From assembly GCA_966211335.1 (NCBI GenBank), contig CBIHNF010000001.1:151079-215078 (forward strand): a DNA stretch of 64,000 bases, given 5' to 3'. Position numbers and translations under genes: made by a program. The DNA comes from an uncultured Alphaproteobacteria bacterium (GTDB lineage: Bacteria; Pseudomonadota; Alphaproteobacteria; Micavibrionales; UBA2020). Below the pieces are notes generated by a model. The model was not told where the DNA came from, ran no database searches, and saw only the letters and a program-made list of their open reading frames with translations. Shown piece by piece: positions 3 through 57,345 of this stretch. Numbering within the stretch: the first letter of the stretch is position 1; each line of letters begins with the position of its first letter.

Positions 3-1268
3 CTCGCTTCTGTCCAGAAACTGACGGATGCGACACGCGAACTGCCCGCGGTTGCCAACGCCTTCGGCGCGGTCTGGGACGAAAGCCACGTTGACAGCTA
101 CCACACCGAATTTTACACGACACAAAGCTGCGATTCAAAAGGCCAGAACTGCACGACGCAGATTCATACCCGCCAGGTCTACGATTACACGACGCATACC
201 TACTCCTATAATCAGGCGCAGGGCGAAGCGGCCTATGTGGCGCTTGGAAACTTCCTGCAGAAATTCCCCGACCTGAACGTGCAGGAACGCCTGCATCTCG
301 CCTCCGGCACCGGCGCGGAAAACGAGGACGCCATCAAGACCAGCATGAAGGACCGCTTCAAGGACAAGGCGATGACGGCGGCGGAAGCCTTGGGCCTTGC
401 CAACACCTGGGCATCGGGTTCCAACTTTACCAAATACACGCCCATCATTCGCAATAGCGAAGCGCAGCTGAACAACCTGCTGCCGGCCTGGGCGCAGGGC
501 AAGGGCACCGCGCAGAGCACCAGCTACCGCACCTATTCGCATAGCGATGCGGGCCCGAGAGAATACCAGATTGCGGAAGCCGTGCGCGATAACGCCGTCA
601 CCGCGAATAACTCATCCGTGAAAATTATCGACGGTATCGCCTATGCAGGCAGCGCCGTGCCGAGCCTGTCGCGCCAGATCCGCGATTATGTGGATGTCTC
701 GCTGCACGGCAAGGCCGGCGACCCCGACAAAATGCGCAGCCAGCTGATGAAAAGCGCGCGCGATCTGTACGACAAAAACTTCGAGAACGGTTTTGACGTC
801 AACCCCTTCAAGTGGCTGATGATCGTCCTTTATACCACCCTCGGCATGGCGCTGGGCGGCGGCATGGGCGCCGGCGTCAACTGGCTGCTCGACAAGAAGA
901 AGGAAGCCGCATGGCGCCGCGGCATCGACATCACCAAGTGGAAACCCATCACCTTCAAGAAGCGCGAAAAGCTGCCGCCGGTCTATAAAGGCCGCGACGA
1001 GGTTGCGCCGCAGGCACCGAAACAAGAACCGAAACCGGTCACTTACCCCAGCGCCAGCGACGTTTTTGCAGCTGAAGCCAAGAAGGCTGACAGCGGCAAT
1101 GTCATCACGCTGCCGAAAGAAGCAACGGAAACGCCGGAAGTGCCGGAAACTATTCCGCCGCAAACGCCGGCCAACCAGAACAAGCCTGTGGAGGACGCAG
1201 CCAAGCAGGCCGCGAACAGTGCCACCATGGCCGAGCGCTGGCGCCGCATTCGCGATTTCAAGCTGTAA
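3..1268 (+). CDS. Hypothetical membrane-anchored protein, 5'-partial; the reading frame is open from the window edge
   Basis: Frame 3 has no stop from nt 3 through to the listed 237..1268 ORF, so the GTG at 237 is probably not the true start. There is one hydrophobic Gly-rich segment (WLMIVLYTTLGMALGGGMGAGVNWLL), followed by a Lys/Pro/Glu-rich tail. I recognise no family. Confidence 0.55.
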   Translation, partial: LASVQKLTDATRELPAVANAFGAVWDESHVDSYHTEFYTTQSCDSKGQNCTTQIHTRQVYDYTTHTYSYNQAQGEAAYVALGNFLQKFPDLNVQERLHLASGTGAENEDAIKTSMKDRFKDKAMTAAEALGLANTWASGSNFTKYTPIIRNSEAQLNNLLPAWAQGKGTAQSTSYRTYSHSDAGPREYQIAEAVRDNAVTANNSSVKIIDGIAYAGSAVPSLSRQIRDYVDVSLHGKAGDPDKMRSQLMKSARDLYDKNFENGFDVNPFKWLMIVLYTTLGMALGGGMGAGVNWLLDKKKEAAWRRGIDITKWKPITFKKREKLPPVYKGRDEVAPQAPKQEPKPVTYPSASDVFAAEAKKADSGNVITLPKEATETPEVPETIPPQTPANQNKPVEDAAKQAANSATMAERWRRIRDFKL

Positions 1269-1273
1269 ATCCG

Positions 1274-2875
1274 TCAGGCTTTCCTTGCCGCTATCGTCGG
1301 CAGCAGGCTGGAGAATTCTTTATAGTCGACGGGCTTCACGAGGTAGTGGTCAAAGCCCGCCTCGACCGCGAGTTCCTTGTCACGCGCCTGCCCCCAGCCC
1401 GTCTGCGCGATCAGCACTGTATTTTTAAAGGCAGGGTCTTTGCGCAATTCGCGCGCCACGTCATAGCCGTTCATGCCCGGCAGGCCGATATCGAGCATGA
1501 TGATATCGGGATGCAGCACGCGCGCTTTTTCCAGCGCCTCGAGGCCGTCATGCGCCAGCACCGGCAGGTGCCCCAGCATTTCGATCATCCAGCCGGTGGT
1601 CTTGGCGGAGTCAACATTGTCGTCAACGACGAGAATGTGCAGGGCTTCCGCCACCTCTGCCTTGGCGCGGGCGGCGGCCAGCGCCGGATCATCCGTCACG
1701 CCGACGGCGAGCGGCAGGCGGATGGTGAAGGCGCTGCCGTTGTTCAGCCCCGCGCTTTCCGCCGTGATGCTGCCGCCATGCATGTCAACAAGGCGGCGCA
1801 CGAGAGCAAGACCAATGCCAAGGCCGCCTTTGGAGCGTTCCAGATGCCTGTCGACCTGCGTGAAAAGGTCAAAAACTTTCGGCAGCATGTCGCCCGGAAT
1901 GCCAAGGCCGTTATCGGCCACGGTCACCACCGCCTCACCGCCGTCACGCCGCGCGGTTAGGGTGATGCGCCCGCCATCCGGCGTGTATTTCGCGGCGTTG
2001 TTGAGCAGGTTGCTGACAGCCTGCGAAATCCTGGTGCTGTCGGCATCGAGCCAAAGCGGCTCCTCCGGCACCTCGATGACCAGCTTGTGGCGCGCGGTGT
2101 CGATCAGCGGCTGGCTGGTTTCAACCGCCGACTTCAGCGCCGACTGCAGCGTGATACGTTCCTTGCGCAGATCAATCTTGCCCTGGCTGACGCGGGAGAC
2201 ATCGAGCAAGTCATCGATCAGCCGGACAAGGTGGGTCAGCTGCCTGTCCATCATGCCGCGCACTTCTTCCGCCTGCGGGCCATCCGGCGCCATACGCAGG
2301 ATTTGCAAACCGTTGCGGATAGGGGCAAGCGGGTTGCGCAGTTCATGCGCCAAAGTGGCTAGGAATTCATCCTTGCGGCGGTCGGCGTCCCTCAGCGCGA
2401 CGGCGTACTGGCGGCTTTCATGCAGCAGGTATTCGTTTTCATCGGCGGTCACCTTTAGGGAGTCGCGCTGGCGGGCCAGCTGCAGCTGCTGCCGTGCGAG
2501 GGAGAAGAACACATCCGCCTTGCTGCGCAGCACATCCGCCTCGATCGGCTTTTGCAGGAAGTCGACGGCGCCGGCTTCATAACCGCGGAAGCGGCGCTGG
2601 CGGTCAGCCTCCCCTGCGGTCAGGAAAATAATCGGCACGCGGCGCGTGCGCTCCGTCCCGCGCATGAGTTCGGCGAGTTCAAAGCCGTCCATGCCGGGCA
2701 TCTGCACATCAAGCAGGGCGAGGGAAATTTCATGGGTGAGCAAAATTTCCAGCGCCTCGGTGCCGGAGCGCGCCTTTAAAATGACAAGGTTGTCGCGGCG
2801 CAGCAGCGCTTCCAGCGCCATCAGGTTTTCGGGCAGGTCGTCGACGAGCAGGAAATAAACCGGGTCTTTTGGCAT
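1274..2875 (-). CDS. Hybrid sensor histidine kinase (REC-coiled coil-HisKA-HATPase-REC)
   Basis: The N-terminal receiver reads LLVDDLPENL...LLDVQMPGMDGFEL. The H-box is LATLAHELRNPLAPI and the ATPase G-boxes are DNGLGIP and GGLGIGLALV. The C-terminal receiver reads ILVVDDNVDSA...MLDIGLPGMNGYDV. It is the last gene of the operon with cheB, cheR and the CHASE3 kinase. Confidence 0.9.
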   Translation of the reverse strand: MPKDPVYFLLVDDLPENLMALEALLRRDNLVILKARSGTEALEILLTHEISLALLDVQMPGMDGFELAELMRGTERTRRVPIIFLTAGEADRQRRFRGYEAGAVDFLQKPIEADVLRSKADVFFSLARQQLQLARQRDSLKVTADENEYLLHESRQYAVALRDADRRKDEFLATLAHELRNPLAPIRNGLQILRMAPDGPQAEEVRGMMDRQLTHLVRLIDDLLDVSRVSQGKIDLRKERITLQSALKSAVETSQPLIDTARHKLVIEVPEEPLWLDADSTRISQAVSNLLNNAAKYTPDGGRITLTARRDGGEAVVTVADNGLGIPGDMLPKVFDLFTQVDRHLERSKGGLGIGLALVRRLVDMHGGSITAESAGLNNGSAFTIRLPLAVGVTDDPALAAARAKAEVAEALHILVVDDNVDSAKTTGWMIEMLGHLPVLAHDGLEALEKARVLHPDIIMLDIGLPGMNGYDVARELRKDPAFKNTVLIAQTGWGQARDKELAVEAGFDHYLVKPVDYKEFSSLLPTIAARKA

Positions 2876-2880
2876 GTCGT

Positions 2881-3465
2881 TTACTTTTCACCTGCAGTTT
2901 GAAGGGCTGCCGCAATTTCGGCAAGGGTGAGGATTTCGGCGCTGGCGCAGGCTTTGGCGGCTGCTTCCGGCATGGCGGAGGCATAGGCAGTATCCGGCCG
3001 CTGCACCAGCGCCCGGCCGCCAGCACCGGCAATGGCGGCAAGCCCGGCCGCGCCGTCATTATTGGCGCCGGTCAGGATGACGCCGATGGTGTTTTCGCCA
3101 TAGGCATCCGCGGCGCTTTCAAACAAAACGTCGATGGAAGGCCTTGAATACAGCACCGGCTCATCGCTGGAGAGGGACAGCGTGCCGCTGCCTTCCACCA
3201 GCAAATGGTAATCAGGCGGCGCGATATAGACATGCCCGGGCTCGAGCGGTTCTTTATCCTCCGCCTCCTGCACCTTGACCTTGCATTTCGCGCCCAAAAG
3301 TTCGGCAACGACGCTTTTTTTGTCGGGCGGCACATGCATGACGATGACGACCGGCAGAGAGAAATTTTCCGGCAGGGCGGGCAGAATGGCGTAAAAAGCC
3401 TCCAGCGCGCCGGCGGAGGCGCCCATGACGACGATATTGTCAAAAGATTTACGCGCTGCCGTCAT
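2881..3465 (-). CDS. cheB: CheB-type protein-glutamate methylesterase, catalytic domain only (no receiver domain)
   Basis: NIVVMGASAGALEAF... contains the CheB GASAGG-like serine motif, with VVIVMHVPP and a YIAPPDYHLLVE-type segment. At 194 aa it is too short to carry an N-terminal REC domain. Its start overlaps the cheR stop (ATGA, 3462-3465). Confidence 0.85.
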   Translation of the reverse strand: MTAARKSFDNIVVMGASAGALEAFYAILPALPENFSLPVVIVMHVPPDKKSVVAELLGAKCKVKVQEAEDKEPLEPGHVYIAPPDYHLLVEGSGTLSLSSDEPVLYSRPSIDVLFESAADAYGENTIGVILTGANNDGAAGLAAIAGAGGRALVQRPDTAYASAMPEAAAKACASAEILTLAEIAAALQTAGEK

Positions 3466-4286
3466 ACGCCGCCCCGCTTCTGGTAGATTTTTTCATCACG
3501 CGCGAATTCGGTGAAGGACTCCGCATGGCTTGAAAAGCGCAAGGATTCCTTGGAGCCGAGGCCGAGGAAGCCCTGCCGCGACAGGGAGTCGCGGAAGAGG
3601 CCGATCGCCCTGTCCTGCAGTGGCCGGTCGAAATAGATCAGCACGTTGCGGCAGGAAATGACCTGCACTTCGGCGAAGACGGAATCGGTGACAAGGCTGT
3701 GGTCGGAAAACACCGTGCGCTGGCGCAGCGTTTTATCGAAGGAAGCTGCGCTGTAGGCAGCCGTGTAATAATCGGATAGCGACGATTTGCCACCGGATTT
3801 CTGGTGATTTTCGGTGAACTGGCGGATGCGGTCAAGGCTGTAGACGCCGGCTTCGGCTTTTTTCAGCGCCTCGGGGTTGATGTCGGTCGCGTAGAACTGT
3901 GTCCGGCTTTCGAGACCCTCCTCGCGGAACATGATGGCGAAGGAATAAAGCTCCTCCCCCGCACTGCAGCCAGCGATCCACACCTTGAGGGAGGGATAAG
4001 TGCGCAGATGCGGAATAACCTTTTCCCGGAAGGCCTTGAAATAAGCCGGGTCGCGGAAGACTTCCGAGACCTGCACCGTCATGAAGGCCAGCATCTGCGG
4101 CAGAGTTGAGGGGTCATGCAGCACGCGGTCCTGCAGCTGGGAATAGCTGGTGCAGCCGAAATGATGCCGCGCCTGGTTAAGCCGGCGCTTCAGCGACGCC
4201 ATGGAATAGCCGCGGAAGTCGTAGTGATACTGCCGGAAAATCGCCTCGAGCAGCAGCTTCATCTCGATGTCGTCGATCTTATCCAA
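3462..4286 (-). CDS. cheR: CheR-type protein-glutamate O-methyltransferase
   Basis: The N-terminal helical CheR domain reads LLEAIFRQYHYDFRGYSMASLKRR. The SAM-binding core is LKVWIAGCSAGEELYSFAIMF, followed by ISCRNVLIYF. Confidence 0.9.
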   Translation of the reverse strand: MDKIDDIEMKLLLEAIFRQYHYDFRGYSMASLKRRLNQARHHFGCTSYSQLQDRVLHDPSTLPQMLAFMTVQVSEVFRDPAYFKAFREKVIPHLRTYPSLKVWIAGCSAGEELYSFAIMFREEGLESRTQFYATDINPEALKKAEAGVYSLDRIRQFTENHQKSGGKSSLSDYYTAAYSAASFDKTLRQRTVFSDHSLVTDSVFAEVQVISCRNVLIYFDRPLQDRAIGLFRDSLSRQGFLGLGSKESLRFSSHAESFTEFARDEKIYQKRGGV

Positions 4287-4319
4287 TTCAAGTTCCTGCT
4301 TTCGGGGGCGTACCGCTCA

Positions 4320-7300
4320 TCATCTCGGCATCCAGACCCGGACGAGGGAGAGAAGTTTTTCGACGTCGAGTGGTTTGGCCATGTAATCGTTCGCGCCGGC
4401 ATCAAGGCAGCGCTCCTGGTCGTCCTTCATCGCTTTTGCGGTCAGCATGATGACGGGCAGTTTTTTCAGCTCCGGCATGCGGCGGATTTCGCGGGTGGCG
4501 GTCAGGCCATCCATTTCCGGCATCATGACGTCCATCAGCACAAGGTCAATCGCCTCGCCTTTTTCCTTGAAGGACGTCAGCGCCGTCAGCGCCTCGCGCC
4601 CGTTGCGGGCGATATGGACGATAGCGCCTTCGGGCTCGAGGATATTGGTGAGGGCATAAACGTTGCGGACGTCATCCTCCACCACAAGAATACGGCGGCC
4701 CTGCAGCACTTCGTCGCGGCTGCGCGCCTGTTCCAGCATTTTCTGCTGTGCGGCCGGCAGGTCCGACACGACCTGATGCAGGAAGAGCGTGACTTCATCC
4801 AGCAGCCGCTCCGGCGATTTGGCGCCCTTGATAATGATGGATTTGGAATAGCGGCGCAGGCGATGCTCTTCCTCCGACGACAATTCGCGGCCGGTGTAGA
4901 CGATGACCGGCGGGAAGGAATAGGCGTCTTCACTGCTTAAAGTTTCCAGCAGCGTATAACCTGAGGCATCCGGCAGCGAGAGATCGAGCACCATGCAGTC
5001 GAAAGTTTCGGTTTTCAGTTTTTCAAGGCATTCGCCCGCGGTGCCGACGCCGACGGTCTGCACATCGGCGGTGCCGAGCAGTTTGCCGACGCTGTCGCGC
5101 TGCACGGCGTCATCCTCCACAATCAGGACGCGGCGCATATGCTTGTCGAGGCGGGATTCAAGCTTTTTCAGCACATCGACCAGCTCTTCGCGCTTCACCG
5201 GTTTCAGCATATAGCCGATAGCGCCGAGCTGCAGCGCCTTCTGCGCGTAATCGCCGCCGGAGACGACGTGCACCGGAATGTGCCGCGTGCGCGGGTTGCG
5301 CTTGAGGCGGTCGAGGACGGAGAGGCCGGAGTTATCGGGCAGGCCGACGTCCAGCACCACCGCGCTCGGCAGGTATTGCTTGGCAAGCGCCAGCGCCTCT
5401 TCCGCGGTGTTGGAGATGATGCACTGGAAGTCGAGCTCATGCGCAAGGTCGTAGAGGATGCGGGCAAAGGATTCATCATCCTCGACCACCAGTATGGTGT
5501 GACTCGTGGCGGTCAGCCGTTCGCGGTCGTCTTCCACCCATTTGATTTTATGTTTGCTGTTGCGCGGCGGCACGGGCGCTTCCGGCACGGCGGCGGCGGG
5601 CAGTTCGGGGGCGAGGTTGAACGTCGGCTTCAGCACCGTCTTTTCGTCATAGCTTTCCGGCAGCACGAGCGTGAAGGTCGAGCCTTTGCCGGGTTCGCTC
5701 TCGAGCTCGATGGAGCCGCCGAGCAATCTTGCGAACTCGCGTGAGATGGAAAGGCCAAGGCCGGTGCCGCCGTATTTGCGGCTGATGGTACCGTCCGCCT
5801 GGCGGAAGGCATCGAAAATGGCTTTTTGCTGTTCCTTCGACACGCCAATGCCGGTATCCGTCACTGCCAGCGCAATGCGGCCGTCGTCGCGGCGGCTGAT
5901 GGCGAAAGTGACGCCGCCCTTTTCGGTGAATTTGAAGGCGTTCGAGAGCAGGTTTTTCAAGACCTGCTCCAGCCGCTGGCGGTCGGTGTCGATGGTGTCC
6001 GGCAGCCCCTCGCCCAGCTTGTTGTCGAGGCGGAGACCCTTCTGCTGCGCGATCGGCTCGAAGATGCGGGACATATCGCTGATGAGGCGGGACAGCGGCA
6101 CCGCTTCCGGCCGGATCTCCATATGCCCCGCCTCGATTTTGGAAAGGTCGAGAATGTCGTTGATGAGCGCCAAGAGGTCATTACCCGCCGCCTGAATGGT
6201 GAGGGCGTATTTGACCTGCTCGGCCGTCAGGTTCTTCTCCGGATTGTCGGCCAGCAGTTTGGCGAGGATGAGGGAGGAGTTGAGCGGCGTGCGCAGCTCA
6301 TGGCTCATATTGGCAAGGAAGTCGGACTTATAGCGGCTCGCCTGTTCCAGCTCTTTCGCCTTGAAATCGACAAGGGCTTTCGCGGTCGCGAGATCATCGC
6401 GCTGCACTTCAAGCTGCTGGGTTTGTTCTTCCAGCTGGGAGTTGGTCTGCTCCAGCTCCGCCTGCTGCTGCTCGAGCCGGCTTTGCGAATCCTTCAGCGC
6501 GCGGGATTGTTCTTCCAGCTCCTCGTTGTTGACGCGCAGCTCTTCTGACTGCGCCTGCAGCTCTTCCGCCTGACGCTGCGTTTCTTCGAGGAAGTCCTGC
6601 AGGTTGGCGCGGTAGTTGGCGGAGCGGATGGCGACGCTGACGGTTTCCGAGACATTCGACAACAGCTCGGTCACATAGCTGTCGATGGGGTGGATGAAGC
6701 CAAGCTCGACGACGCCGTTGACGAGGCCTTCGGAGGACGCCGGCGAGATGATTAGATGGCGCGGCTTGCCGCGGCCGAGGCCGGAGCCCGCGGCGATATA
6801 ACCGTCCGGCAGGTCGTTGATGACGATGGTGCGCGCGTCTTTCGCGGCGGCGCCGAGGAGCCCCTGCCCCAGCGCGAAGCCCTGCGGCACGGCGGCATCA
6901 TCCGGCAGGCCGAAGGCGGCGATGCGGCGGTATTCTCCGCCTTCGCGCACGAAGAAGGCGCCGGCATGCGCATCGGCATATTGCGCGATGTATTTCAGCA
7001 CGTTTTCGCCGAGCTGTTCCATGCGCTGGTCGCCCGCCATGACCATGCTGAGGCCAACCTGGCCGGACTGCAGCCATTGCTGCCGCACGCGCGCCATGGA
7101 GTTGCGGCGCACCAGATAGGCCACAACGGCCGAGAGCAGCACACCCAGCAAACAGGTGATGGCGCCGCTGACCAGCGTGGTGCGGTAGGATTCCTGCATT
7201 TCAAGGATGCGCTGCTGGCGAACAACGCTTTCATCCCGCTTCATATCATCGACCGCACCGCGCAGCGCGTCCATATAAGTCTTGCCGCGGTCGGACAGCA

Positions 7301-7787
7301 CAACCGCCATGGCGGCATCGAGCCCTTTATCGCGGCGGAGGTCGATGGTTTCTTTCAGCTCCTGCAGCTTGGCGGCGATATTGCTGCGCAGCGTCGCAAG
7401 GCGTATTTCATGCTCGGGGTTGTCGGCGGTCAGGCGCTCGACATTGCCAATTTGCTCGCCAATGCTGGCAACGGCGTTTTCATAGGGCGCGAGATATTTG
7501 ACATCGCCCGTCAGCACATAGCCGCGCTGCCCTGTTTCGGCGTCTTTCATGTACGACAGCAGATCGCTGACGCTGGCCAGAACCTCATGCGTATGCGCGA
7601 CCGCCTGCTGGCCATCCAGCAATGCTTTCGTATTCGCGTAGGAGAGCACGCCCGAGCCGATGAAGAACAGCACCACGGCCGCAAGCCCGAGGGAGACGAC
7701 GAAGTCCGACTTCATCTGGCGGCTGGCATTGGTAGAGCCGTCTGTCACATAGCCGGATTTTGGGGCGGGGGCGGTTGAGGCGGGCAT
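4320..7787 (-). CDS. CHASE3-TM-GAF-coiled coil hybrid histidine kinase with three C-terminal receiver domains
   Basis: A CHASE3-like periplasmic region (THEVLASVSDLLSYMKDAETGQRGYVLTGDVKYLAPY) is flanked by two hydrophobic helices. It is followed by a GAF-like region, a long heptad coil, the H-box FLANMSHELRTPLNS and the HATPase motifs DTGIGV and GGTGLGLSI. Three REC domains follow (ILVVEDDESFA, VLIVEDDAVQ, ILVVEDDVRN). The start could be the internal Met at codon 25. Confidence 0.9.
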   Translation of the reverse strand: MPASTAPAPKSGYVTDGSTNASRQMKSDFVVSLGLAAVVLFFIGSGVLSYANTKALLDGQQAVAHTHEVLASVSDLLSYMKDAETGQRGYVLTGDVKYLAPYENAVASIGEQIGNVERLTADNPEHEIRLATLRSNIAAKLQELKETIDLRRDKGLDAAMAVVLSDRGKTYMDALRGAVDDMKRDESVVRQQRILEMQESYRTTLVSGAITCLLGVLLSAVVAYLVRRNSMARVRQQWLQSGQVGLSMVMAGDQRMEQLGENVLKYIAQYADAHAGAFFVREGGEYRRIAAFGLPDDAAVPQGFALGQGLLGAAAKDARTIVINDLPDGYIAAGSGLGRGKPRHLIISPASSEGLVNGVVELGFIHPIDSYVTELLSNVSETVSVAIRSANYRANLQDFLEETQRQAEELQAQSEELRVNNEELEEQSRALKDSQSRLEQQQAELEQTNSQLEEQTQQLEVQRDDLATAKALVDFKAKELEQASRYKSDFLANMSHELRTPLNSSLILAKLLADNPEKNLTAEQVKYALTIQAAGNDLLALINDILDLSKIEAGHMEIRPEAVPLSRLISDMSRIFEPIAQQKGLRLDNKLGEGLPDTIDTDRQRLEQVLKNLLSNAFKFTEKGGVTFAISRRDDGRIALAVTDTGIGVSKEQQKAIFDAFRQADGTISRKYGGTGLGLSISREFARLLGGSIELESEPGKGSTFTLVLPESYDEKTVLKPTFNLAPELPAAAVPEAPVPPRNSKHKIKWVEDDRERLTATSHTILVVEDDESFARILYDLAHELDFQCIISNTAEEALALAKQYLPSAVVLDVGLPDNSGLSVLDRLKRNPRTRHIPVHVVSGGDYAQKALQLGAIGYMLKPVKREELVDVLKKLESRLDKHMRRVLIVEDDAVQRDSVGKLLGTADVQTVGVGTAGECLEKLKTETFDCMVLDLSLPDASGYTLLETLSSEDAYSFPPVIVYTGRELSSEEEHRLRRYSKSIIIKGAKSPERLLDEVTLFLHQVVSDLPAAQQKMLEQARSRDEVLQGRRILVVEDDVRNVYALTNILEPEGAIVHIARNGREALTALTSFKEKGEAIDLVLMDVMMPEMDGLTATREIRRMPELKKLPVIMLTAKAMKDDQERCLDAGANDYMAKPLDVEKLLSLVRVWMPR

Positions 7788-8122
7788 GGCGGCATTCCAT
7801 TCAATACGTTACGGCGAAAGCAGGCCGCCCGCGGAAATTCCGCCGGCGTTCTGTCGGGGCAGCAATGGCAGGAAGAAGCCAAATCTAAAGGTCGCAAAGC
7901 CGGTTTGGAGTAAACCCCTTAGCCGGTACGCCCTGATGGTTGAAAAAGCCGCCCCCCAAGATAGGCATGTTAAGGTCTTCATCCAGCTAAAACAACAACT
8001 TAAACCTGCACGAGCCGCCGCAGTGAATGTACGCACGGGGTTAAAAAAAGTTCCCGGCCCCCCGCGGCGTTATTTACATACCGGAGCATGGCGAGGGCGG
8101 ACTTGACTCCCGCCCCCGATAA

Positions 8123-8137
8123 GAACAAAATAGGAAC
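8123..8137 (+). promoter_or_regulatory. Candidate LexA (SOS) box, GAAC-N7-GAAC
   Basis: The sequence is GAACaaaatagGAAC, about 20 nt upstream of the ATG at 8157 of the Y-family polymerase. It matches the direct-repeat GTTC-N7-GTTC / GAAC-N7-GAAC LexA operator described for Alphaproteobacteria. Confidence 0.55.
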
Positions 8138-8156
8138 AAAGGGGCGATTCCGCATT

Positions 8157-9446
8157 ATGTCATCTTCCACCACTCCGCTCGACCTGCGCTGGCTCTATGT
8201 CGACTTCAACAGCTACTTCGCGAGCGTGGAGCAGCAGCTGAACCCGGCCCTGCGCGGCCGGCCGGTAGCCGTGGTGCCGGTGCTGACCGATTCAACCTCC
8301 GCCATCGCCGCGAGCTATGAGGCGAAAGCCTTCGGCATCAAAACCGGCACGCCGGTCTGGGAGGCGAAAAAGATCTGCCCCGATATCGCCATCGTCCTCG
8401 CGCGGCACGACAAATATGTCGAATTCCACCAGGCCATTCTGGCGGAGATGGACAATCATATTCCCGTCTCCAAAGTCTGCTCGATCGATGAAGTCGCCTG
8501 CGCGCTGATGAAGAACGAAAGAAGCGTGGAGCGGGTGACGGAGATTGCCGCCAGCATCAAGCGCGGCCTCCGGGAGAATGTGGGTGAATTCGTCAAATGC
8601 TCGATTGGCGTTGCGCCCAGCAAGTACCTCGCCAAGGTTGCGACCGACCTGCAAAAGCCGGACGGCTTCACTATTCTGCGCGGGGAGGATTTGCCGGGCC
8701 GCCTGCTGGAGCTAAAGCTGCGCGACCTGCCCGGCATCGGCCACAATATGGAGCTGCGGCTGAACAAGGCCGGCATCCGCACCATGCGCCAGCTTTACGC
8801 CCTGCAGCCGCGGCATATGCGCGCCATCTGGGGGAATATCTGGGGCGAGAAAATGTGGTACTACCTGCGCGGCGCGGATCTGCCCGACGCGGATGAAAAC
8901 ACCGAAACACGCTCCATCGGCCATAGCCATGTGCTGGCGCCGGAGGTGCGCCCGCCGGCGGAAGCCTATCAGGTCGCAAAGCGCCTGACCATGAAGGCAA
9001 CCGCGCGCCTCCGCCGTGCCGAATTCTACGCCAGCCGCTTTGCCCTCTCGATCAGCCTTGAAAACGGCACGCGTTACGGGCGGGAAGCCCAGTGCCGCGC
9101 TTCAATGGACAGCTTCACCTTCCTCGAGCTGCTGGAAAAAATGTGGCGGGAAATCATGAAGGAGGTGCGCGGCGCGCGTATCAAGAAACTCGGGGTCACC
9201 CTCTACGGACTGACGCCCGAAGCGGAAGTGACCGTGCAGCAGGACCTATTCGACCTCTTGACCGCCCCCGCCGCCGCAAAACGCCAGCAGGTGAACGAAA
9301 CGCTTTCAACAACCATGGACAAACTCAACCAGAAATTTGGCAAAAACACCGTCCTCCTCGGCATGGCGCCGTCGGGAGGAAAAGACGGCACCTCGACCAA
9401 GGTGGCATTCAACCGGATACCGGATGTGGAGGAGTTTAGGGAGTGA
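8157..9446 (+). CDS. Y-family (DinB/UmuC superfamily) DNA polymerase
   Basis: The catalytic motifs LYVDFNSYFASVEQ and CSIDEVACAL are present, with a LPGIGHNMELRL helix-hairpin-helix-like segment. I prefer the ATG at 8157 (MSSSTTPLDLRW) over the listed 8088 start because the putative operator lies between them. Confidence 0.85.
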   Translation: MSSSTTPLDLRWLYVDFNSYFASVEQQLNPALRGRPVAVVPVLTDSTSAIAASYEAKAFGIKTGTPVWEAKKICPDIAIVLARHDKYVEFHQAILAEMDNHIPVSKVCSIDEVACALMKNERSVERVTEIAASIKRGLRENVGEFVKCSIGVAPSKYLAKVATDLQKPDGFTILRGEDLPGRLLELKLRDLPGIGHNMELRLNKAGIRTMRQLYALQPRHMRAIWGNIWGEKMWYYLRGADLPDADENTETRSIGHSHVLAPEVRPPAEAYQVAKRLTMKATARLRRAEFYASRFALSISLENGTRYGREAQCRASMDSFTFLELLEKMWREIMKEVRGARIKKLGVTLYGLTPEAEVTVQQDLFDLLTAPAAAKRQQVNETLSTTMDKLNQKFGKNTVLLGMAPSGGKDGTSTKVAFNRIPDVEEFRE

Positions 9447-9957
9447 GCTGGCCTATCCAGCTGTGCTCCGGGCTTTCAATCCTCAACGCCGTGCGCAGCC
9501 ATTCCCTTGCAGCGTCATCAAGGCAGGGGAGTGCCGTCGCAAAATCCTGCGCATCGATATCGCGCATATGTTTTGATTTATAAAGCAGCGCTATTTCCAG
9601 CGGCAGCGCCCCGCCCGATGCCGCAAACCTGCTGCGCGGCAGGCGGATGGCGCGATTGCGGCGATAAACCCAGTCATCGCCGTCAAATTCGTTCAGCAGA
9701 ACTTCCAGCGTGTTGCCGTCTTCGAAATGGCAGTATATTTCATGCACCGGCAATTCGAGCCGCTCGCCCTGCCACAGATGCGGCGTGCTTTTTGCCATGT
9801 ATTCGATTTTCAAAAGCTGCGGCATCTGAAGCAGAAACCGCTGGTCATCCCGCGCCAGCGCAATCTCGACATCTTTATGCGCCCTAGTCTGCCGCCCCAC
9901 CGCCATATCAACAGCCCAGCCGCCCGCGATCCAGTAGGGCGCGGGAAACACTTTCAT
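9436..9957 (-). CDS. Nucleotidyltransferase of the aminoglycoside-2''-adenylyltransferase (AadB-like) family
   Basis: YWIAGGWAVDMAVGRQTRAHKDVEIAL aligns by eye with the WIGGGWAIDARLGRVTRKHDDIDL active-site region of ANT(2'')-Ia. Its 3' end overlaps the polymerase 3' end by 11 nt (convergent). Confidence 0.6.
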   Translation of the reverse strand: MKVFPAPYWIAGGWAVDMAVGRQTRAHKDVEIALARDDQRFLLQMPQLLKIEYMAKSTPHLWQGERLELPVHEIYCHFEDGNTLEVLLNEFDGDDWVYRRNRAIRLPRSRFAASGGALPLEIALLYKSKHMRDIDAQDFATALPCLDDAAREWLRTALRIESPEHSWIGQLTP

Positions 9958-10136
9958 ACGCTCAAGCGTAAATCCAAGTTCGGGAGACAGGGCGATATCC
10001 TTCTATCTAAAAACATTGGGATTCGGCAACGACATCTCTTCTTTGGCGAAAAGATAATATTGGCTCAAAGGCGTATCCGGCCTCTGCAAATGTTTGAGAA
10101 TTCTAGACAGCTATAAAAAATTAAATATTAAATAGA

Positions 10137-10757
10137 CTACGCATTTTTATCAGCGTTAATATTTGACGATTCCAAATTTTCGCCATCCTCAATAAATTCC
10201 TTGATGTGTTTAAACGCGACCGTTTTCTCTTCTAAGAAAATTTCGTAACCCCTCCTCATAGATTGTAAAAGAGCTACAAAATCTCTGACTAAACGAGCAA
10301 TAAATTTTGTAAAATTATCTTCTCCTGATTTTTTATTATTTTCTGTTTTAAGTTCACTCAATAATTTGTCACGAAACTGAGGATAGTATTCTTCAAATAA
10401 ATCCTGCCAAACTGTCTCGTTTATGTCGCAGTCTAAATGGTGGGCTAAACTATTTCTCACTTTATTAATTTTTAGACAGATGTTTGAAGTTCTTTGGTCA
10501 ATTATACCCATCGAGCAACAAAGCTTAGGTTTAATTGCAAAATTAATTTTGGATAAGTCGATCAGTTCAGGATACTTAAGTTCCATTTTGAGCATTTCAT
10601 CCAAACAGTTCTCGATATAAAGGTGTCCTCGCAAAATTACCGATATTGGATCGGAAGAATTTAATTCGACACGAGCTTTGTTTAAATCAAAAGTGAAATC
10701 TTTTTCGACGTCAAACCCACGCCTGATTTCATCAAAAATGCTCGACTTTTTGGACAT
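10137..10757 (-). CDS. Hypothetical protein with a HEPN-type RNxxxH motif, encoded in an AT-rich islet
   Basis: Composition is strongly AT-rich relative to the flanks. The protein is helical and K/E/N/I-rich and contains KVRNSLAHH, which fits Rx4H with Asn after Arg. I chose the start at MSKKSSIF (10757) because the listed 10811 start would run into the tRNA. Confidence 0.6.
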   Translation of the reverse strand: MSKKSSIFDEIRRGFDVEKDFTFDLNKARVELNSSDPISVILRGHLYIENCLDEMLKMELKYPELIDLSKINFAIKPKLCCSMGIIDQRTSNICLKINKVRNSLAHHLDCDINETVWQDLFEEYYPQFRDKLLSELKTENNKKSGEDNFTKFIARLVRDFVALLQSMRRGYEIFLEEKTVAFKHIKEFIEDGENLESSNINADKNA

Positions 10758-10776
10758 AAATTTTTGATCTAAAAAT

Positions 10777-10868
10777 TGGCGGAGACGGTGAGATTCGAAC
10801 TCACGATACATCTTACGACGTATGACGATTTAGCAAACCGTTGCCTTCAGCCACTCGGCCACGTCTCC
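10777..10868 (-). tRNA. tRNA-Ser (anticodon GCU)
   Basis: The reverse complement reads GGAGACG-TG-GCC-GAGTGGCTGAA-GGC...ACGGT-TTGCTAA-ATCGT-(long variable arm)-GTGAG-TTCGAAT-CTCAC-CGTCTCC-G-CCA. The 7-bp acceptor stem pairs perfectly, the T-loop is TTCGAAT and the anticodon loop is UU-GCU-AA. It is 92 nt with an encoded CCA. Confidence 0.93.
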
Positions 10869-10961: not shown

Positions 10962-11717
10962 TCAGCCCTTCAGCGCCGCCGCGTTGGCGCGGATGTTGGC
11001 GGGGGTGAGGCTGCCAAACACAAGGCTGGCGACGCCGGGAGTTTCGGTGACAAAGCGGATATTTTCGGCGAGATCGCCGAGGGGCCCGAGGTGGCCGGAG
11101 GCGAGGCCTTTTTTGACCAGCACGGGTTTGCCAGATGCCGCCGCCGCATCGATCACGGCGCGTTCATCGAGGTAGCCTTTGTTATAGGCGACCATGGCGC
11201 AGTCGGACTTTTCAAGCGCGGCGATGCCGCCCGCGATGGTGTAGGTGGAAACGCCGAAGCTGCCGATAAGCCCCCGCGCTTTAAATTCCGCCAGCACGTC
11301 CAGCACCGCCGTTTCGGTGATGACTTTCACATCATCGCGGTTGCTGTGGACGAGGATGCAGTCGATATAATCTGTCTTGAGGCGCTTCAGGCTGCGCTCG
11401 ACGCTTGCGACCGTATGTTCGCGCGTGAAGATATATTCTGATGTCGCGCCGTCAAACTCCTCCCCCGTCTTGGTGACGAGGAAGAATTTATCCCGCCGCG
11501 CGCCGAGCAGTTTGCCCAAGCGCTCTTCTGCCGTGCCATAGGCAGGCGCGGTATCGAGCAGGGTGATGCCGCAGTCGATCGCGGTATCGAGCAGGGTTTC
11601 AATTTCCGCATCCGTTGGCAGCATGAAGCCGTCGCCGCCCGGATACTTAACGCCGGTGTTGCGGCCGAATTTGACGGTACCGAGGCCCAGCTTGCTGACA
11701 TTTTTCCAACTCAGCAT
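10962..11717 (-). CDS. Aldo/keto reductase family oxidoreductase
   Basis: LGLGTVKFGRN...GITLLDTAPAYGTAEERLG...DYIDCILVHS are typical AKR motifs. I prefer the start at MLSWKN (11717), whose ATG overlaps the upstream gene's TAA (TAATG). Confidence 0.8.
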   Translation of the reverse strand: MLSWKNVSKLGLGTVKFGRNTGVKYPGGDGFMLPTDAEIETLLDTAIDCGITLLDTAPAYGTAEERLGKLLGARRDKFFLVTKTGEEFDGATSEYIFTREHTVASVERSLKRLKTDYIDCILVHSNRDDVKVITETAVLDVLAEFKARGLIGSFGVSTYTIAGGIAALEKSDCAMVAYNKGYLDERAVIDAAAASGKPVLVKKGLASGHLGPLGDLAENIRFVTETPGVASLVFGSLTPANIRANAAALKG

Positions 11718-12889
11718 TACGCCTCCAGCTTGCGGAAGGTCGCGGCTTCCCAAGGGTAAGATCCGACATCCGCCGTCGGCAGCGGCGGCGCGCCGGATTT
11801 GGCGACGGGGTGAATATCTTTATCCTTCAGCCAGTCGAACACGCGGTCGGACAAGACCGGCGCGAAGGTGAGTTTCGTCGGCCATGCCATGAGCACGCGG
11901 CCGCGTTGATGCACATGCGGGCCCGGCGGCAGGTCGCCTTTCGCATCAAACGGTTCCGCGCGGTCGCCGTACCATGTCGCCCATTCTCTGGTCGTCCAGT
12001 CGATATCGGGGAAGACATCCTGCAGTTCTTTCTGCGCGAATTTGATAGCCTCGTCATCGGTCAGCGTCGCGCTTTGTTCCGCCACCGCGCCGCCGAGGTA
12101 CCAGACGAATTCGCCGGGCACGCCTGTCGGGTGGCTCGTCACCGTCATGCGCGGCTTGGGGCTGCTGACAATGCCGTGGCCGTGCAGGGCATAGGGCATG
12201 GGCTTCACCATGATCTGCCGCAGCGGCCGGCGCTGGGCATGATTGTCTTTCACCTTCAGTAATTGCAGCGCGAGTTCATTGCCGGTGCCGGCGGTGAAAA
12301 TAACCAGCTGCGCGCGCATGACGTTGCCGGAGACAACCACCTGTCCGTCCGGCAGCAGTTCCGTCACCTCGCCCTTGAACAACCGGCCTTTGAGATGTTT
12401 GGCGAGGGCGTGGATAAGCGATCTCACCTCCAGCACCTTTTCCGGCAGCTGGTAGACGGGGCCTTTGAATTTTTTCTTGAGACGGAGCACTTCCGGGAAT
12501 TCGTCTTTCTTCAGCTTTTTCGTGGCGGCGTTCACGAGCTTCGCCGCGCCCAAGACTGCGACGTCGGACAGAATGGAGCCCGCCGGCCACATGATTTGCG
12601 TGTCGGACAGGAACTCGACCGCGGTGAGGTCAATTTCTCCCCAGCCCTCGAAGCTCGACTGCCAGCGCTCCGGCATTTTGGCGAGCTGTTCGGCGTGCTT
12701 GGTCAGACTGCCCTGCAGCACATATTTCTGCCCGCCGTGGATCATGCCCTGCGAGGCGAGGGTCTGCCCCGACCCGAGTTTATCTTTCTCGATGAGGATA
12801 ACGTTATAGCCGGCGCGCTTCAGCGTATTGCAGAGCCAGAGCCCCGCAACGCCGCCGCCGAAAATAATCATGTCGTATTCTAATGCCAT
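11717..12889 (-). CDS. FAD-dependent oxidoreductase (DAO/GlpD-like N-terminus)
   Basis: YDMIIFGGGVAGLW...IEKDKLGSGQTLASQGMIHGGQKY is a Rossmann GxGxxG dinucleotide fold with a GlpD-like HGG motif. I prefer the start at MALEYD (12889); the listed longer start would overlap the upstream membrane-protein gene. Confidence 0.75.
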   Translation of the reverse strand: MALEYDMIIFGGGVAGLWLCNTLKRAGYNVILIEKDKLGSGQTLASQGMIHGGQKYVLQGSLTKHAEQLAKMPERWQSSFEGWGEIDLTAVEFLSDTQIMWPAGSILSDVAVLGAAKLVNAATKKLKKDEFPEVLRLKKKFKGPVYQLPEKVLEVRSLIHALAKHLKGRLFKGEVTELLPDGQVVVSGNVMRAQLVIFTAGTGNELALQLLKVKDNHAQRRPLRQIMVKPMPYALHGHGIVSSPKPRMTVTSHPTGVPGEFVWYLGGAVAEQSATLTDDEAIKFAQKELQDVFPDIDWTTREWATWYGDRAEPFDAKGDLPPGPHVHQRGRVLMAWPTKLTFAPVLSDRVFDWLKDKDIHPVAKSGAPPLPTADVGSYPWEAATFRKLEA

Positions 12890-20652: not shown

Positions 20653-21524
20653 TTCTTATGCAGCACTTTAAAAATCGCCGATGAATCCAGCTCGCCGTCG
20701 CCGGTCTTGATGACTTCGTCGAGGTGCAGCGTCGTCAGCGTCGCGGCGGGAAGGTCGATTTTCAGCTTGGCGGCGGTCTGCATGACGATGCCCATATCCT
20801 TGCGGTGCAAGGCGGCCTTGAAGCCGGGTTTATAGTCGTTGCTAAGCATGCGAGCCCCGTGCACTTCCATGATTTTGCTGCCGGCAAAGCCGCCCATGAG
20901 GGCTTCGCGCACCTTGGCGCCATCAACGCCGGATTTTTCGGCGAGCAGCAGCGCTTCGGACACCGCCTCTATCGTGACGGCGACGACGATCTGGTTGCAG
21001 GCCTTGGCCACCTGCCCCGCGCCGGTATCCCCCACATGCACGATGTTTTTACCCATTTTCTCAAAATAGGGTTTCACGCGCGCAAAAATATCGGGCGCGC
21101 CGCCGCACATGATGGAGAGGGTGCCGGCAATGGCCCCCGCTTCGCCGCCGCTGACGGGCGCATCCAGCATATGGACGCCTTTTTCATTCTGCAGCCGCGC
21201 TGCGAACTGCTTGGTTGAATCCGGCGAAATGGTGCTCATATCCACAATCACGCTACCGGGTTTTGCCCCTGCGGCCAGACCATCTTTGCCGAAGATAACT
21301 TCTTCCACATCCGGCGTGTCGGAAACGCAGGTGAAAATGATATCGGCGTTTTCGGCGACTTGCCTTGGGGAGGCATAGGCCTTGCCGCCGGCGGCGATCA
21401 CGGGCGCGGCGCGGTCTGCCTTGCGGGCGAAGACCGCCACATCGAACCCTGCCTTGCGCAAATTCAGCGCCATCGGCTGCCCCATGATGCCAAGGCCGAT
21501 GAATCCCAGTTTTTCAGTTGTCAT
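20649..21524 (-). CDS. NAD(P)-dependent 3-hydroxyisobutyrate / 2-hydroxy-3-oxopropionate (tartronate semialdehyde) reductase family dehydrogenase
   Basis: The Rossmann motif is LGFIGLGIMGQPMALNL, with DAPVSGG and KACNQ typical of the HIBADH family. Its ATG overlaps the addA stop (4 nt). Confidence 0.85.
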   Translation of the reverse strand: MTTEKLGFIGLGIMGQPMALNLRKAGFDVAVFARKADRAAPVIAAGGKAYASPRQVAENADIIFTCVSDTPDVEEVIFGKDGLAAGAKPGSVIVDMSTISPDSTKQFAARLQNEKGVHMLDAPVSGGEAGAIAGTLSIMCGGAPDIFARVKPYFEKMGKNIVHVGDTGAGQVAKACNQIVVAVTIEAVSEALLLAEKSGVDGAKVREALMGGFAGSKIMEVHGARMLSNDYKPGFKAALHRKDMGIVMQTAAKLKIDLPAATLTTLHLDEVIKTGDGELDSSAIFKVLHKN

Positions 21525-24500: not shown

Positions 24501-25246
24501 TCGCGGCCCTTGGTGGCGCCGAGGGTTTTGTAAACCGCGTCAATCGTCGGCTCCATGCCGCCCGCGGCGGTGAAGGTCGAGAGCAGCTGGCCGCGGCGGT
24601 AGGTCAGTTCGTTGATGAGGGCGGAAAAATCATCTTCCGACATTTCCGGCGTCACCATGTTGACGGCCTTGGCAAGCTCGGTATCGGGATGTTTGCGCAC
24701 TTCCCGCAGCACATCGGCCTGCGCCGAGCGCAGCATTTCGGCGGAGGTCTGGTCGTCCATCACGTCGAAATACGGCGGAATGCCCGATTCAATCGGGAAG
24801 CGGCGCAAAAGGTTCTGGGAGAAGGAGTGGATTGTCTGCACGCGCATGCCGCCGTAGGCATCGAGGAATTCGGCAAACATCTGGCGGGCGCGCGTGGTCA
24901 CTTCCGGCGTCGGCTTGCGGCCGGTCAGTTTGGTCAGTTTGTCGGTCAGCTTGTCGTCATCGCAGGTGGCCCAGGTGCTGAGTTCTTCGCGGATGCGGTT
25001 GGTCATGACGGAGGCCGCGGCCTTGGTAAACGTCAGGCACAAAATCTGGTCAGGCTTCGAGCCATTCAGCATCAGGCGCAGCACGCGGTCGGTTAAAACT
25101 TTTGTCTTGCCGGTACCGGCCGAAGCCGTCACCCAGACGGAAGCCTGCGGATCAGACGCCTGACGCTGCACGACGTTGGGATCGGGGCGGCCTTTGCTGC
25201 CGCCGGCGGCTTTCAATTGCTTTTTGGGGGTCGAACCATCGGCCAT
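21521..25246 (-). CDS. addA: Double-strand break repair helicase-nuclease AddA (alphaproteobacterial type)
   Basis: UvrD/PcrA helicase motifs are present: ASAGTGKTKVLT (Walker A), ILVDEAQDTNP, VGDEKQSIFSFQRA, TVHGAKGLEAP and YVAMTRA. A C-terminal PD-(D/E)XK-like nuclease region reads GQIDRLVV...IVDFK. It lies immediately downstream of addB with a TAATG overlap. Confidence 0.93.
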   Translation of the reverse strand: MADGSTPKKQLKAAGGSKGRPDPNVVQRQASDPQASVWVTASAGTGKTKVLTDRVLRLMLNGSKPDQILCLTFTKAAASVMTNRIREELSTWATCDDDKLTDKLTKLTGRKPTPEVTTRARQMFAEFLDAYGGMRVQTIHSFSQNLLRRFPIESGIPPYFDVMDDQTSAEMLRSAQADVLREVRKHPDTELAKAVNMVTPEMSEDDFSALINELTYRRGQLLSTFTAAGGMEPTIDAVYKTLGATKGRDPVDMNALLNTDIGLNGNSPDLDALKDAADILAGGSPSDLEKAKMIKAWILHPEQRQELFWDYASVFLTQDREMRKRLTTKATAAAQDAMEQEAERLMDGIEAISTMNVARGTESILRLSGAILEKYGEKKRSLNLLDYDDLVHSANKMMNQDNAAAWVLQKLPGNLQHILVDEAQDTNPDQWQLVAAIAREFFTNAQRKAAKDHTIFVVGDEKQSIFSFQRADPKEFNLRKKFFADLVKQSGGKWREVEMEIAFRSSPAITQAVDAVFTNPEASDGLFFEEDAGKKQVHHTPFRRGQAGVVEVHPVVRGEEQPPTKPWSLPTEMESGKDPAGDLADNIAEQIKGWLDSGEQLESRKRPINPADILILVRRRSAFVDDVVRALKKRDIPVAGADRMSLREQIAVMDLVALGESLLFPRDDYKLASVLKTPLIGMNDQQLEDLAVGRPADLWAALQAKAEENKNAKPGDAGRIYKDALEYLSNLRQTFNAERPYEFYSSILMNTCPGNQKSGLNAMYARLGFEAEDPLVEFLNAVERFEKNHVASLQGFLAWLDAGEAEVKREINLNPETPRVHIMTVHGAKGLEAPIVILPDTTGLPEDNARARPKFLWPEGSRTVPLWVARSDLESKAFAAEREKAELERDREFRRLLYVAMTRAGDRLYVHGFQNADRRSEKSWYSLIKTGLQNYLKGTEEVEAPKSANDNKPLAASFDKAAKKDAAPEADALPPPEPEKVLRFSVKQTARAVPDGLKPIGKAKAVGIPVWARTLPKQEAAPVKKFRPSEYKSSNDNYSAPSPLEAERETYSRRLGTVIHELFEFLPSLPPDEREVAARKHLSKPGWNLSAADQDASAKQVMKILSDPEFGALFGPNSRAEVSITGHFDKGGQKQLMSGQIDRLVVDDKTVLIVDFKNSAKVPKKLAEVSDKYIVQLASYRMALQQIYPDKQIKCALLYTREAKLMPLPNKKLDAALKRIDLKPHHKPDNKTPDKKGPAAP

Positions 25247-47061: not shown

Positions 47062-47063
47062 TT

Positions 47064-50723: not shown

Positions 50724-50766
50724 CAATAATCCAATTTTTCAGGCCTATTTTTAGAAAGCGCACCTT

Positions 50767-53895: not shown

Positions 53896-53940
53896 TTTTC
53901 CGAAGTTTGCTATTTTAGAAGACAGGGGACTATAGCTGCT

Positions 53941-54912: not shown

Positions 54913-54938
54913 GGCGATACTTGGGGACTAACACAGTG

Positions 54939-55766: not shown

Positions 55767-55786
55767 AAAATTGAACCGATAAACTT

Positions 55787-57169: not shown

Positions 57170-57345
57170 CGGACTCAATACGTTCGACATTCGGATAAGG
57201 CTGCCCTTTCTTTGAGTCTATTCGCTCAGGATTAGGGGAATTAGAGTTCAAAAAAAATTGCAAAATCAATGCAGAATGACTCTGGAAAGCTTGATTCGTT
57301 TTAATATAGAATCATCCAATCATCGAAGCGGGAGAAATAAAAACA

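Follow-up and report, generated by a model that had tools for sequence, protein, structure and literature searches.

In a 64,000-nucleotide stretch of DNA from an uncultured alphaproteobacterium of the order Micavibrionales (contig CBIHNF010000001.1, hereafter the window), four genes of the minus strand form a self-contained signalling cassette of the CfcA/BmsA/RsbK kind. They encode a hybrid histidine kinase with a CHASE3 sensor, a GAF domain and three C-terminal receivers (HK1), a CheR-type methyltransferase, a CheB-type methylesterase devoid of receiver domain, and a second hybrid kinase that starts with a receiver (HK2, the product of the fourth gene). What is new here, as far as comparison of sequences can tell, is that the signalling helix (S-helix) of HK1 is conserved on par with the dimerization and histidine phosphotransfer (DHp) domain and displays nearly invariant exposed Glu-Glu pairs, and that the fourth gene keeps only its N-terminal receiver. 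The best explanation in our opinion, and one that we consider fairly likely, is that the S-helix is methylated by CheR and demethylated by CheB, which would tune the output of HK1 toward the receiver of the fourth gene.

The S-helix contains Glu-Glu pairs at positions 408/409, 415/416 and 422/423, i.e. at a spacing of seven residues. We estimated conservation as the mean frequency of the top residue in an alignment of 52 full-length HK1 orthologues from cassette loci. The S-helix reaches 0.84, with 60% of its columns at least 90% conserved, which is comparable to the DHp domain (0.87); the catalytic and ATP-binding (CA) domain is at 0.74, the receivers at 0.71-0.79, CHASE3 and GAF at 0.55 each, and the helix segment that comes next after the S-helix (residues 463-480) at 0.61. 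Residues E416, N421, E422, E423 and N449 are invariant, E415 is found in 51 of the 52 proteins and E408 and E409 in 92-98% of them, and Glu and Gln interchange at positions 397, 401, 426, 439, 446, 451 and 454. The best-kept residues are located at exposed positions (the EE and N of heptad positions b and c) as well as among the core leucines. The second half of the helix resembles a degenerate repeat of the first one, with QQEELQQTNEELEEK in Bacteroidota where Alphaproteobacteria have QQAELEQTNSQLEEQ. These comparative data narrow the idea of kinase methylation to a 67-residue helix and to four nearly invariant candidate glutamates, namely E415, E416, E422 and E423.

When a 73-residue segment of the S-helix was compared with 1.84 billion representative proteins, 640 matches were obtained at E <= 1e-3. 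Eight long and architecturally divergent matches were analyzed with Pfam: all are S-helix-HisKA-HATPase kinases, seven of them with a GAF domain upstream, and with sensors such as HAMP or dCache. Since matches are rare and the eight divergent ones all possess the same kinase core, the S-helix is an element specific to this family, not a coiled coil of the generic kind, and the search for its motif in architectures other than kinases yielded none among these eight proteins. The AlphaFold2 (AF2) model of the HK1 monomer, with a predicted local distance difference test (pLDDT) score of 75, shows one continuous helix from residue 370 to 448 followed by low-confidence breaks at 449-451 and 464-465, and pLDDT falls below 50 through the DHp domain, as expected of a dimeric domain. 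A hairpin fold-back like that of chemoreceptors is not seen in this monomer, whose model is unreliable through the DHp region.

Altogether, Pfam and AF2 give HK1 a sensor-kinase layout made of CHASE3, GAF, a long signalling helix, HisKA/HATPase and C-terminal receivers, with two helices (20-93 and 167-250) that cross the membrane segments. The H-box FLANMSHELRTPLNS is invariant among orthologues, and so are the receiver acceptors D813, D935 and D1086 with their DD/D/K residues. Thousands of homologues with the same Pfam architecture and about 65% identity over about 1150 residues are found across Planctomycetota, Acidobacteriota and Alphaproteobacteria. Almost all orthologues end with ...LSLVRVW[MLI]x[RK]-COOH (window 4320-4340), where the invariant Trp occupies the fourth place from the C-terminus, as it does in NWETF, the pentapeptide by which chemoreceptors tether CheR and CheB. 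This tail may simply be the end of the receiver helix alpha-5.

Both modification enzymes should be active. The best solved relative of CheR is CheR from Bacillus subtilis (5FTW, E = 1.9e-26), and the protein retains the VFRD, GCSAGEE, ATDI and CRNVLIYF motifs; among 71 cassette CheRs, the arginine-containing FRD, the SAM-binding GCSxGEE and ATDI (SAM, S-adenosylmethionine) and CRNVLIYF are conserved. Its score against the NCBIfam CheR equivalog model is 63.9 bits for a cut-off of 435. As announced by the initial annotation of this DNA, which had been made from the sequence without database searches, CheB is receiver-less: Pfam recognizes the CheB_methylest domain alone in its 194 residues, the protein aligns to residues 154-335 of 1A2O only, and it matches only the C-terminal half of the full-length CheB models of NCBIfam. 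In the alignment with CheB from Salmonella typhimurium (1A2O), S17 faces Ser164, H44 His190 and D137 Asp286, and this triad is invariant in 29 relatives; the best 120 of the thousands of relatives are all 187-205 amino acids long. Removal of the receiver is known to relieve the inhibition of CheB esterases. Barring regulation in trans, the CheB of the cassette, having no receiver, should thus be constitutively active. CheR and CheB are not part of one polypeptide but the products of separate overlapping genes, and Pfam detects no PAS domain in any of the four proteins.

The conservation of HK2 is restricted to its N-terminal receiver (0.76, compared with 0.51-0.58 for the linker, DHp and CA domains), and no conserved acidic helix or E/Q heptads are observed in the linker of its orthologues. 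Across loci, and irrespective of the output that follows, this receiver retains about 70% identity, compared with only 23-36% to the other receivers of HK1 and HK2. The output can be a HisKA kinase, which may or may not end with a receiver; rhizobia have an HWE kinase, cyanobacteria a PAS-kinase, and the metagenome-assembled genome (MAG) of a Burkholderiaceae a PAS-GGDEF-EAL module, the fourth position being occupied there by a CfcR-like REC-PAS-GGDEF-EAL protein (L073:6763-10047). In the latter and in the downstream genes of loci L012, L016, L018 and L034, the N-terminal receiver is 52-80% identical to that of the window, the rhizobial REC-HWE_HK receivers being at 77-80%. The fact that the receiver is kept while the output is swapped argues that it would be the cognate phosphoacceptor of HK1, with an interchangeable output, and singles it out as the conserved phosphoacceptor candidate. 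RsbY (REC-PP2C) and the relation of CfcD to CfcR offer parallels, HK2 being the CfcD-like partner and its receiver the analogue of that of RsbY. We also considered that it could be a displaced CheB receiver, for which the sequence gives no support: among solved structures it comes nearest to PleD D1 (E = 3.5e-24) and to generic receivers, and no CheB receiver is present among the 60 best matches listed.

The packing of the four genes is tight and translationally coupled. As read directly from the DNA, 33 nt, with an AGGA ahead of the TTG start codon of cheR, separate this gene from HK1, the ATG of cheB overlaps the stop codon of cheR by 4 nt (ATGA), and 5 nt separate cheB from HK2. The initial annotation had described four co-directional genes with these domain orders and spacings, and the coordinates of the open reading frames (ORFs), the junctions and Pfam are in full agreement with it. 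The coordinates of the cassette and of other features are collected in Table 1.

Table 1. Features of the four-gene cassette and of other parts of the window (window coordinates; aa, amino acids).
Feature	Position	Strand	Description
HK1	7787..4320	-	1155-aa ORF; CHASE3-GAF-HisKA-HATPase-RECx3 by Pfam
HK1 transmembrane segments			TM1 ~aa 29-50; TM2 ~aa 205-226; periplasmic CHASE3 in between
HK1 CHASE3 sensor domain, aa 61-193	7209..7607	-	Pfam PF05227, E = 2.6e-44
HK1 GAF domain (GAF_2), aa 255-387	6627..7025	-	Pfam PF13185, E = 7e-11
HK1 E/Q-rich S-helix, aa 396-462	6402..6602	-	LQDFLEETQRQAEELQAQSEELRVNNEELEEQSRALKDSQSRLEQQQAELEQTNSQLEEQTQQLEVQ; proposed methyl-accepting segment, between GAF and H-box
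HK1 kinase core	5655..6329	-	HisKA/DHp aa 487-554, phospho-acceptor His496; HATPase_c aa 602-711
HK1 three receivers, ~aa 763-875, 886-1005, 1033-1149	4341..5501	-	Pfam Response_reg x3
CheR	4286..3462	-	274 aa; TTG start, AGGA before it; CheR-type protein-glutamate O-methyltransferase, CheR_N + SAM-binding domain, Pfam PF03705, PF01739
CheB, receiver-less	3465..2881	-	194 aa; CheB-type methylesterase/deamidase, Pfam PF01339, E = 1.2e-60, aa 12-188
HK2 (fourth gene)	2875..1274	-	533 aa; REC-HisKA-HATPase-REC by Pfam: N-terminal receiver aa 9-119, HisKA 168-232, HATPase_c 279-390, C-terminal receiver
Divergent intergenic region, HK1 / DinB/Pol IV-like gene (8088-9446, +)	7788..8087	.	Presumed operon promoter region
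AddA/AddB-type helicase-nuclease pair	21521-28476
Complete dcw cluster	39453-59154		mraW, ftsI, murE, murF, mraY, murD, ftsW, murG, murC, ddl, ftsA, 602-aa FtsZ

The cassette is not peculiar to this genome and is of an already described, widespread kind. A genome scan with one genome per species, combined with an alignment of receiver-less CheB proteins, yielded 80 loci, 67 of them with enough flanking DNA. They come from about ten phyla and include Alpha-, Beta- and Gammaproteobacteria, Planctomycetota, Verrucomicrobiota, Bacteroidota, Gemmatimonadota, Myxococcota, Bdellovibrionota, Acidobacteriota and Cyanobacteria. Domain mapping revealed nearly everywhere the same order, [CHASE3-GAF-helix-HK-REC-REC-REC], [CheR], [CheB without REC], [REC-...]. 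By automatic count the complete cassette is present in 58 of the 67 loci with enough flank, which bears out the phylogenetic co-occurrence of the four genes that the initial annotation had suggested examining; CheR is conserved in 73 of the 80 loci, and an MCP (methyl-accepting chemotaxis protein) or a CheW occurs within 10 kb in only four of them. Since it is kept in most related loci of many phyla, the arrangement is far from chance. When checked from the HK1 side, three loci out of three (Fimbriiglobus ruber, an Acidobacteriota MAG and Acidisphaera sp.) carry the identical four genes amid unrelated flanks. In F. ruber (L087:634-7676), the cassette adjoins kdpFABC and a sigma-54 response regulator, an anecdotal fit with the salt or osmotic role of CfcA.

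The nine incomplete loci comprise at least one parsing artefact (L080), four loci of Nostoc and one of Anabaena. In the Nostoc MAGs (L065, L070, L078 and L086), CheB is directly followed by a REC-PAS-HisKA-HATPase-REC protein, no CHASE3-GAF kinase is adjacent, and CheR is absent or several kb away; in Anabaena azotica (L084), CheR adjoins CheB and the kinase lies about 4 kb upstream. As these loci retain it, the pair formed by CheB and the fourth gene is the most tightly linked part of the cassette. A Candidatus Sericytochromatia MAG (L068:8985-11429, + strand) displays a single ORF of 814 amino acids in which CheB (residues 9-183) is fused to REC-PAS-PAS-HisKA-HATPase. The order CheB-REC is the reverse of that of canonical CheB, and this single instance, which could be an assembly artefact, hints at a physical complex between CheB and its partner.

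The cassette was also found on 56 plasmid records, many of them conjugative, from Agrobacterium, Rhizobium, Ensifer, Brucella and Sphingobium, where the copies are annotated 'response regulator / CheR / CheB / response regulator'. Plasmid carriage, together with the identity of about 65% between HK1 proteins across phyla, suggests that horizontal transfer of the whole unit, probably frequent, would be the simplest explanation for its being so well conserved. On plasmid pAtCFBP6626a of A. tumefaciens (L090), the cassette comes with one more response regulator, of a single domain and encoded on the opposite strand.

We then looked for chemotaxis partners. Every stop-to-stop ORF of at least 70 amino acids in the window was compared by phmmer with the window's own domains and with the signalling domain of Escherichia coli Tsr and CheW. 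No MCP matched the Tsr domain and no ORF matched CheW, and the HisKA plus HATPase and receiver queries revealed no histidine kinase or receiver beyond the four genes. Pfam identified no MCP, CheW or CheA in 24 further ORFs, which include all those of at least 500 amino acids in the rest of the window and cover small Hpt-type ORFs only in part. The ORFs of at least 500 amino acids outside the cassette are other proteins or have no Pfam match, and the 24 correspond to housekeeping functions (DinB-type polymerase, GatA/GatB, AddA/AddB-like nucleases, SdhA and the dcw cluster from mraW to ftsZ). In line with the initial annotation, no MCP, CheA or CheW was thus detected in the entire 64 kb.

The same annotation had considered clusters of this type as functionally uncharacterised, which is in part wrong since CfcA, BmsA, the P. 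brassicacearum genes 3082-3079 and RsbK/RsbM/RsbY have been studied (PMC4951495, PMC8175716, PMC6849547). In Pseudomonas putida KT2440, the cfcABCDE cluster encodes CfcA (PP_3761), a CHASE-GAF hybrid kinase with three receivers (PMC4951495; architecture also in bioRxiv 10.1101/2024.11.25.625174), and the diguanylate cyclase response regulator CfcR depends for its activity on the autophosphorylation residue H496 of this kinase; the REC domain of CfcD is the closest relative of that of CfcR (PMC4951495). The CheR/CheB pair encoded by cfcB and cfcC has no role in chemotaxis according to the same paper, which cites Garcia-Fontana 2013 on this point (PMC4951495), and salt stimulates the CfcA system according to work cited in bioRxiv 10.1101/2024.11.25.625174. 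BmsA of P. alkylphenolica and 3082-3081-3080-3079 of P. brassicacearum belong to the same cluster (PMC8175716). In Bacillus cereus, RsbK is a CHASE3-HAMP-GAF-S-helix-HK-CA-REC protein; the adjacent CheR-type enzyme RsbM methylates its signalling helix, which represses signalling and holds the RsbK-RsbY-sigma-B pathway off (PMC4574943, PMC12848376). As many as 127 RsbK-like kinases have been counted in ten phyla (PMC4574943), and the genomic association of RsbK with CheR was noted as early as 2010 (PMC12848376).

With the Pseudomonas cfc cluster, the window shares its gene order (first the CHASE3-GAF hybrid kinase and its three receivers, then CheR and CheB, last the hybrid kinase that contains a REC domain) as well as the lack of MCP, CheA and CheW. 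HK1 resembles CfcA by its His496 numbering, its three receivers and the absence of HAMP, an architecture and a numbering that suggest orthology. Unlike in P. putida, the window has neither a fifth small receiver gene nor a CfcR-like REC-GGDEF-EAL gene, and its host is an alphaproteobacterium. The likeness to RsbK-RsbM-RsbY lies in a CHASE3-GAF-S-helix-HK-REC kinase beside a CheR-type enzyme and in a partner protein that begins with a receiver. However, RsbK possesses HAMP and only one receiver, no CheB-type esterase accompanies RsbM, which makes it an orphan methyltransferase, and RsbY carries a PP2C phosphatase feeding sigma-B in place of a second kinase. As for chemoreceptor adaptation, the two enzyme families are the same, and we propose as substrate a similar long helix, the exposed face of which carries Glu/Gln at the seven-residue spacing of chemoreceptor sites and the modification of which would set the kinase bias; here, on the other hand, MCPsignal domain, CheA and CheW are missing, CheB has no receiver, the helix departs from the MCP methylation consensus, and the kinase of HK1 is fused to its sensor instead of being coupled through CheW.

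A last comparison can be made with the CheB/CheR fusion proteins that contain PAS_10 (KEGG-style name 'two-component system, chemotaxis family, CheB/CheR fusion protein') and display a heptad coiled coil of the type xxNEELx, e.g. NEELQSTNEELETSKEELQSVNEEL. This coil, which is also linked to CheB/CheR outside chemoreceptors, resembles SEELRVNNEELEEQ of HK1 only faintly, with 15-23 bits in a small database, and perhaps through composition. These proteins differ from the cassette in joining CheB and CheR to each other and to PAS modules. The NEELQSTNEELETSKEELQSVNEEL-type coil was observed in protein fragments P0397-P0516, named 'CheB/CheR fusion protein' at the source or carrying PAS_10, and could represent a second class of non-MCP methyl-accepting helix.

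We propose the following scheme for the cassette. HK1 would sense a periplasmic or membrane cue via CHASE3 and a cytoplasmic cue via GAF, salt or osmotic stress being the cue in Pseudomonas, and would autophosphorylate on His496. By analogy with RsbM, CheR would methylate conserved surface-exposed glutamates of the S-helix that joins GAF to DHp. The anatomy of CheB, receiver-less and hence probably unregulated, suggests that it would strip the methyl groups and may also deamidate glutamines. The level of methylation would alter helix packing and thereby set the balance between kinase and phosphatase activities, as in chemoreceptors and as reported for RsbK/RsbM, and a conformation-dependent availability of the substrate could make adaptation possible in the absence of feedback from CheA to CheB. 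From HK1, the phosphoryl group would go to the N-terminal receiver of the fourth gene product, switching the second hybrid kinase, in agreement with the anatomy of the latter, and the three receivers of HK1 could be relay, sink or inhibitory elements. We infer that the downstream partner of HK2 is encoded elsewhere. The initial annotation had similarly suggested that glutamate methylation has been recruited to tune a kinase and that the kinase is the likely acceptor. This proposal is in part supported, since the co-occurrence of the four genes across phyla without MCP, CheA or CheW, the RsbM-RsbK precedent and the conservation of the S-helix all point to it.

Several points weigh against this scheme. 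In P. putida, mutation of the remaining cfc genes did not abolish the crinkly phenotype that depends on CfcR, an unpublished result mentioned by the authors (PMC4951495), so any modulatory role of these genes would be subtle or conditional. Since RsbM has no esterase partner in B. cereus (PMC4574943), reversible methylation, a part of the initial proposal, is not known for any kinase. Inspection of HK1 and of the consensus helix reveals no position that satisfies the MCP pattern [ASTG][ASTG]xx[EQ][EQ]xx[ASTG][ASTG], so we did not class the S-helix as MCP-like. Pfam finds no Hpt domain in HK1 or HK2 that would point to a route of phosphotransfer. Finally, the conservation of the S-helix could reflect signalling mechanics or receiver docking instead of recognition by the enzymes.

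This last point leads to an alternative in which the S-helix would be kept for mechanical signalling or for docking the protein's own receivers, the enzymes modifying another target or CheB acting as a one-time deamidase without any reversible cycle. Signalling helices between sensor and DHp are indeed functionally critical in many kinases, the receiver of RsbK contacts the S-helix and the HK region (PMC4574943), and the missing esterase of B. cereus would also be in line with it. Yet the most invariant residues are the solvent-exposed EE and N of the b/c heptad positions, beyond the core leucines, and the helix is found together with CheR and CheB, both of which have invariant catalytic residues. 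In addition, the following segment (463-480) is variable although it is also located on the signal path. We regard this alternative as unlikely, even if it is the least improbable of the rival readings. Another candidate for the methyl acceptor would be HK2, or a receiver domain, in place of HK1. The tight linkage of CheB with the fourth gene, which persists in Nostoc loci without adjacent HK1 or CheR, and the fusion of the two in the Sericytochromatia MAG speak for HK2. However, HK2 is poorly conserved beyond its N-terminal receiver, its linker shows no conserved E/Q heptads and its output is freely replaced, while the hyper-conserved acidic helix belongs to HK1 and the experimental precedent is a methylated CHASE3-GAF kinase (PMC4574943). 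That the acceptor is HK2 or a receiver seems very improbable to us.

One would also wonder whether CheR and CheB could be ordinary adaptation enzymes for chemoreceptors encoded elsewhere, their position reflecting co-regulation only. Their catalytic domains are complete, MCPs may exist beyond the 64-kb window, and four of the 80 loci do have an MCP or a CheW nearby. Against this stand the four-gene order kept over about ten phyla amid unrelated flanks, the transfer of the cassette as a unit on plasmids, the score of CheR far below the equivalog threshold, and a CheB devoid of the receiver that couples it to CheA. Moreover, the cassette occurs in lineages such as Bacteroidota, which are usually without flagellar chemotaxis. 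The exclusion of the orthologous CheR/CheB pair of P. putida from chemotaxis, for which PMC4951495 cites Garcia-Fontana 2013, goes in the same direction, and we hardly believe in a service to distant chemoreceptors.

A bolder extension of S-helix methylation would be that the cassette is a complete adaptation machine free of MCP, in which the helix of HK1 is reversibly methylated and the esterase receives feedback in trans from the fourth-gene receiver, in effect a split and permuted CheB. The constant adjacency of CheB and the fourth gene, their translational coupling and the one natural CheB-REC-PAS-kinase fusion are hints of such a trans-regulated CheB. The RVW[MLI]x[RK] tail of HK1 could then be a tether for the enzymes, analogous to NWETF. 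This extension is rather doubtful in our eyes; if true, it would give a non-motility output (c-di-GMP, i.e. cyclic di-GMP, or a second kinase) a temporal and exactly adapting response of the chemotaxis type.

Methylation by CheR and CheB-type enzymes is textbook chemoreceptor biology. For a conventional sensor kinase, methylation has been shown once, with RsbK/RsbM of B. cereus and without esterase, and the present cassette adds an esterase and a second kinase to a scheme of this type. The cassette is found very widely among bacteria of soil, rhizosphere and water, rhizobial plasmids carry it as well, and its Pseudomonas version links salt to the control of c-di-GMP and biofilm formation.

Concerning the genomic context, the operon is limited by a divergent gene upstream and a convergent ORF downstream, and Pfam analysis of neighbouring ORFs shows no output regulator close to it. 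Scans of positions 900-8300 for consensus promoters and terminators gave counts near the shuffled expectation. The presence of the dcw cluster and of the AddA/AddB pair indicates that the window is core chromosome, and the two-nuclease AddAB and the FtsZ of 602 amino acids suggest an alphaproteobacterial host. The G+C content is 0.49 between positions 10000 and 12000, compared with about 0.59 elsewhere, and two ORFs lie in this interval (10137-10811, without Pfam match, and 10962-11753). They adjoin an aminoglycoside-2''-adenylyltransferase-like ORF (9436-9957) and the DinB-type polymerase gene (8088-9446), and this low-G+C stretch, which lies just upstream of the cassette, might be an acquired island of small size.

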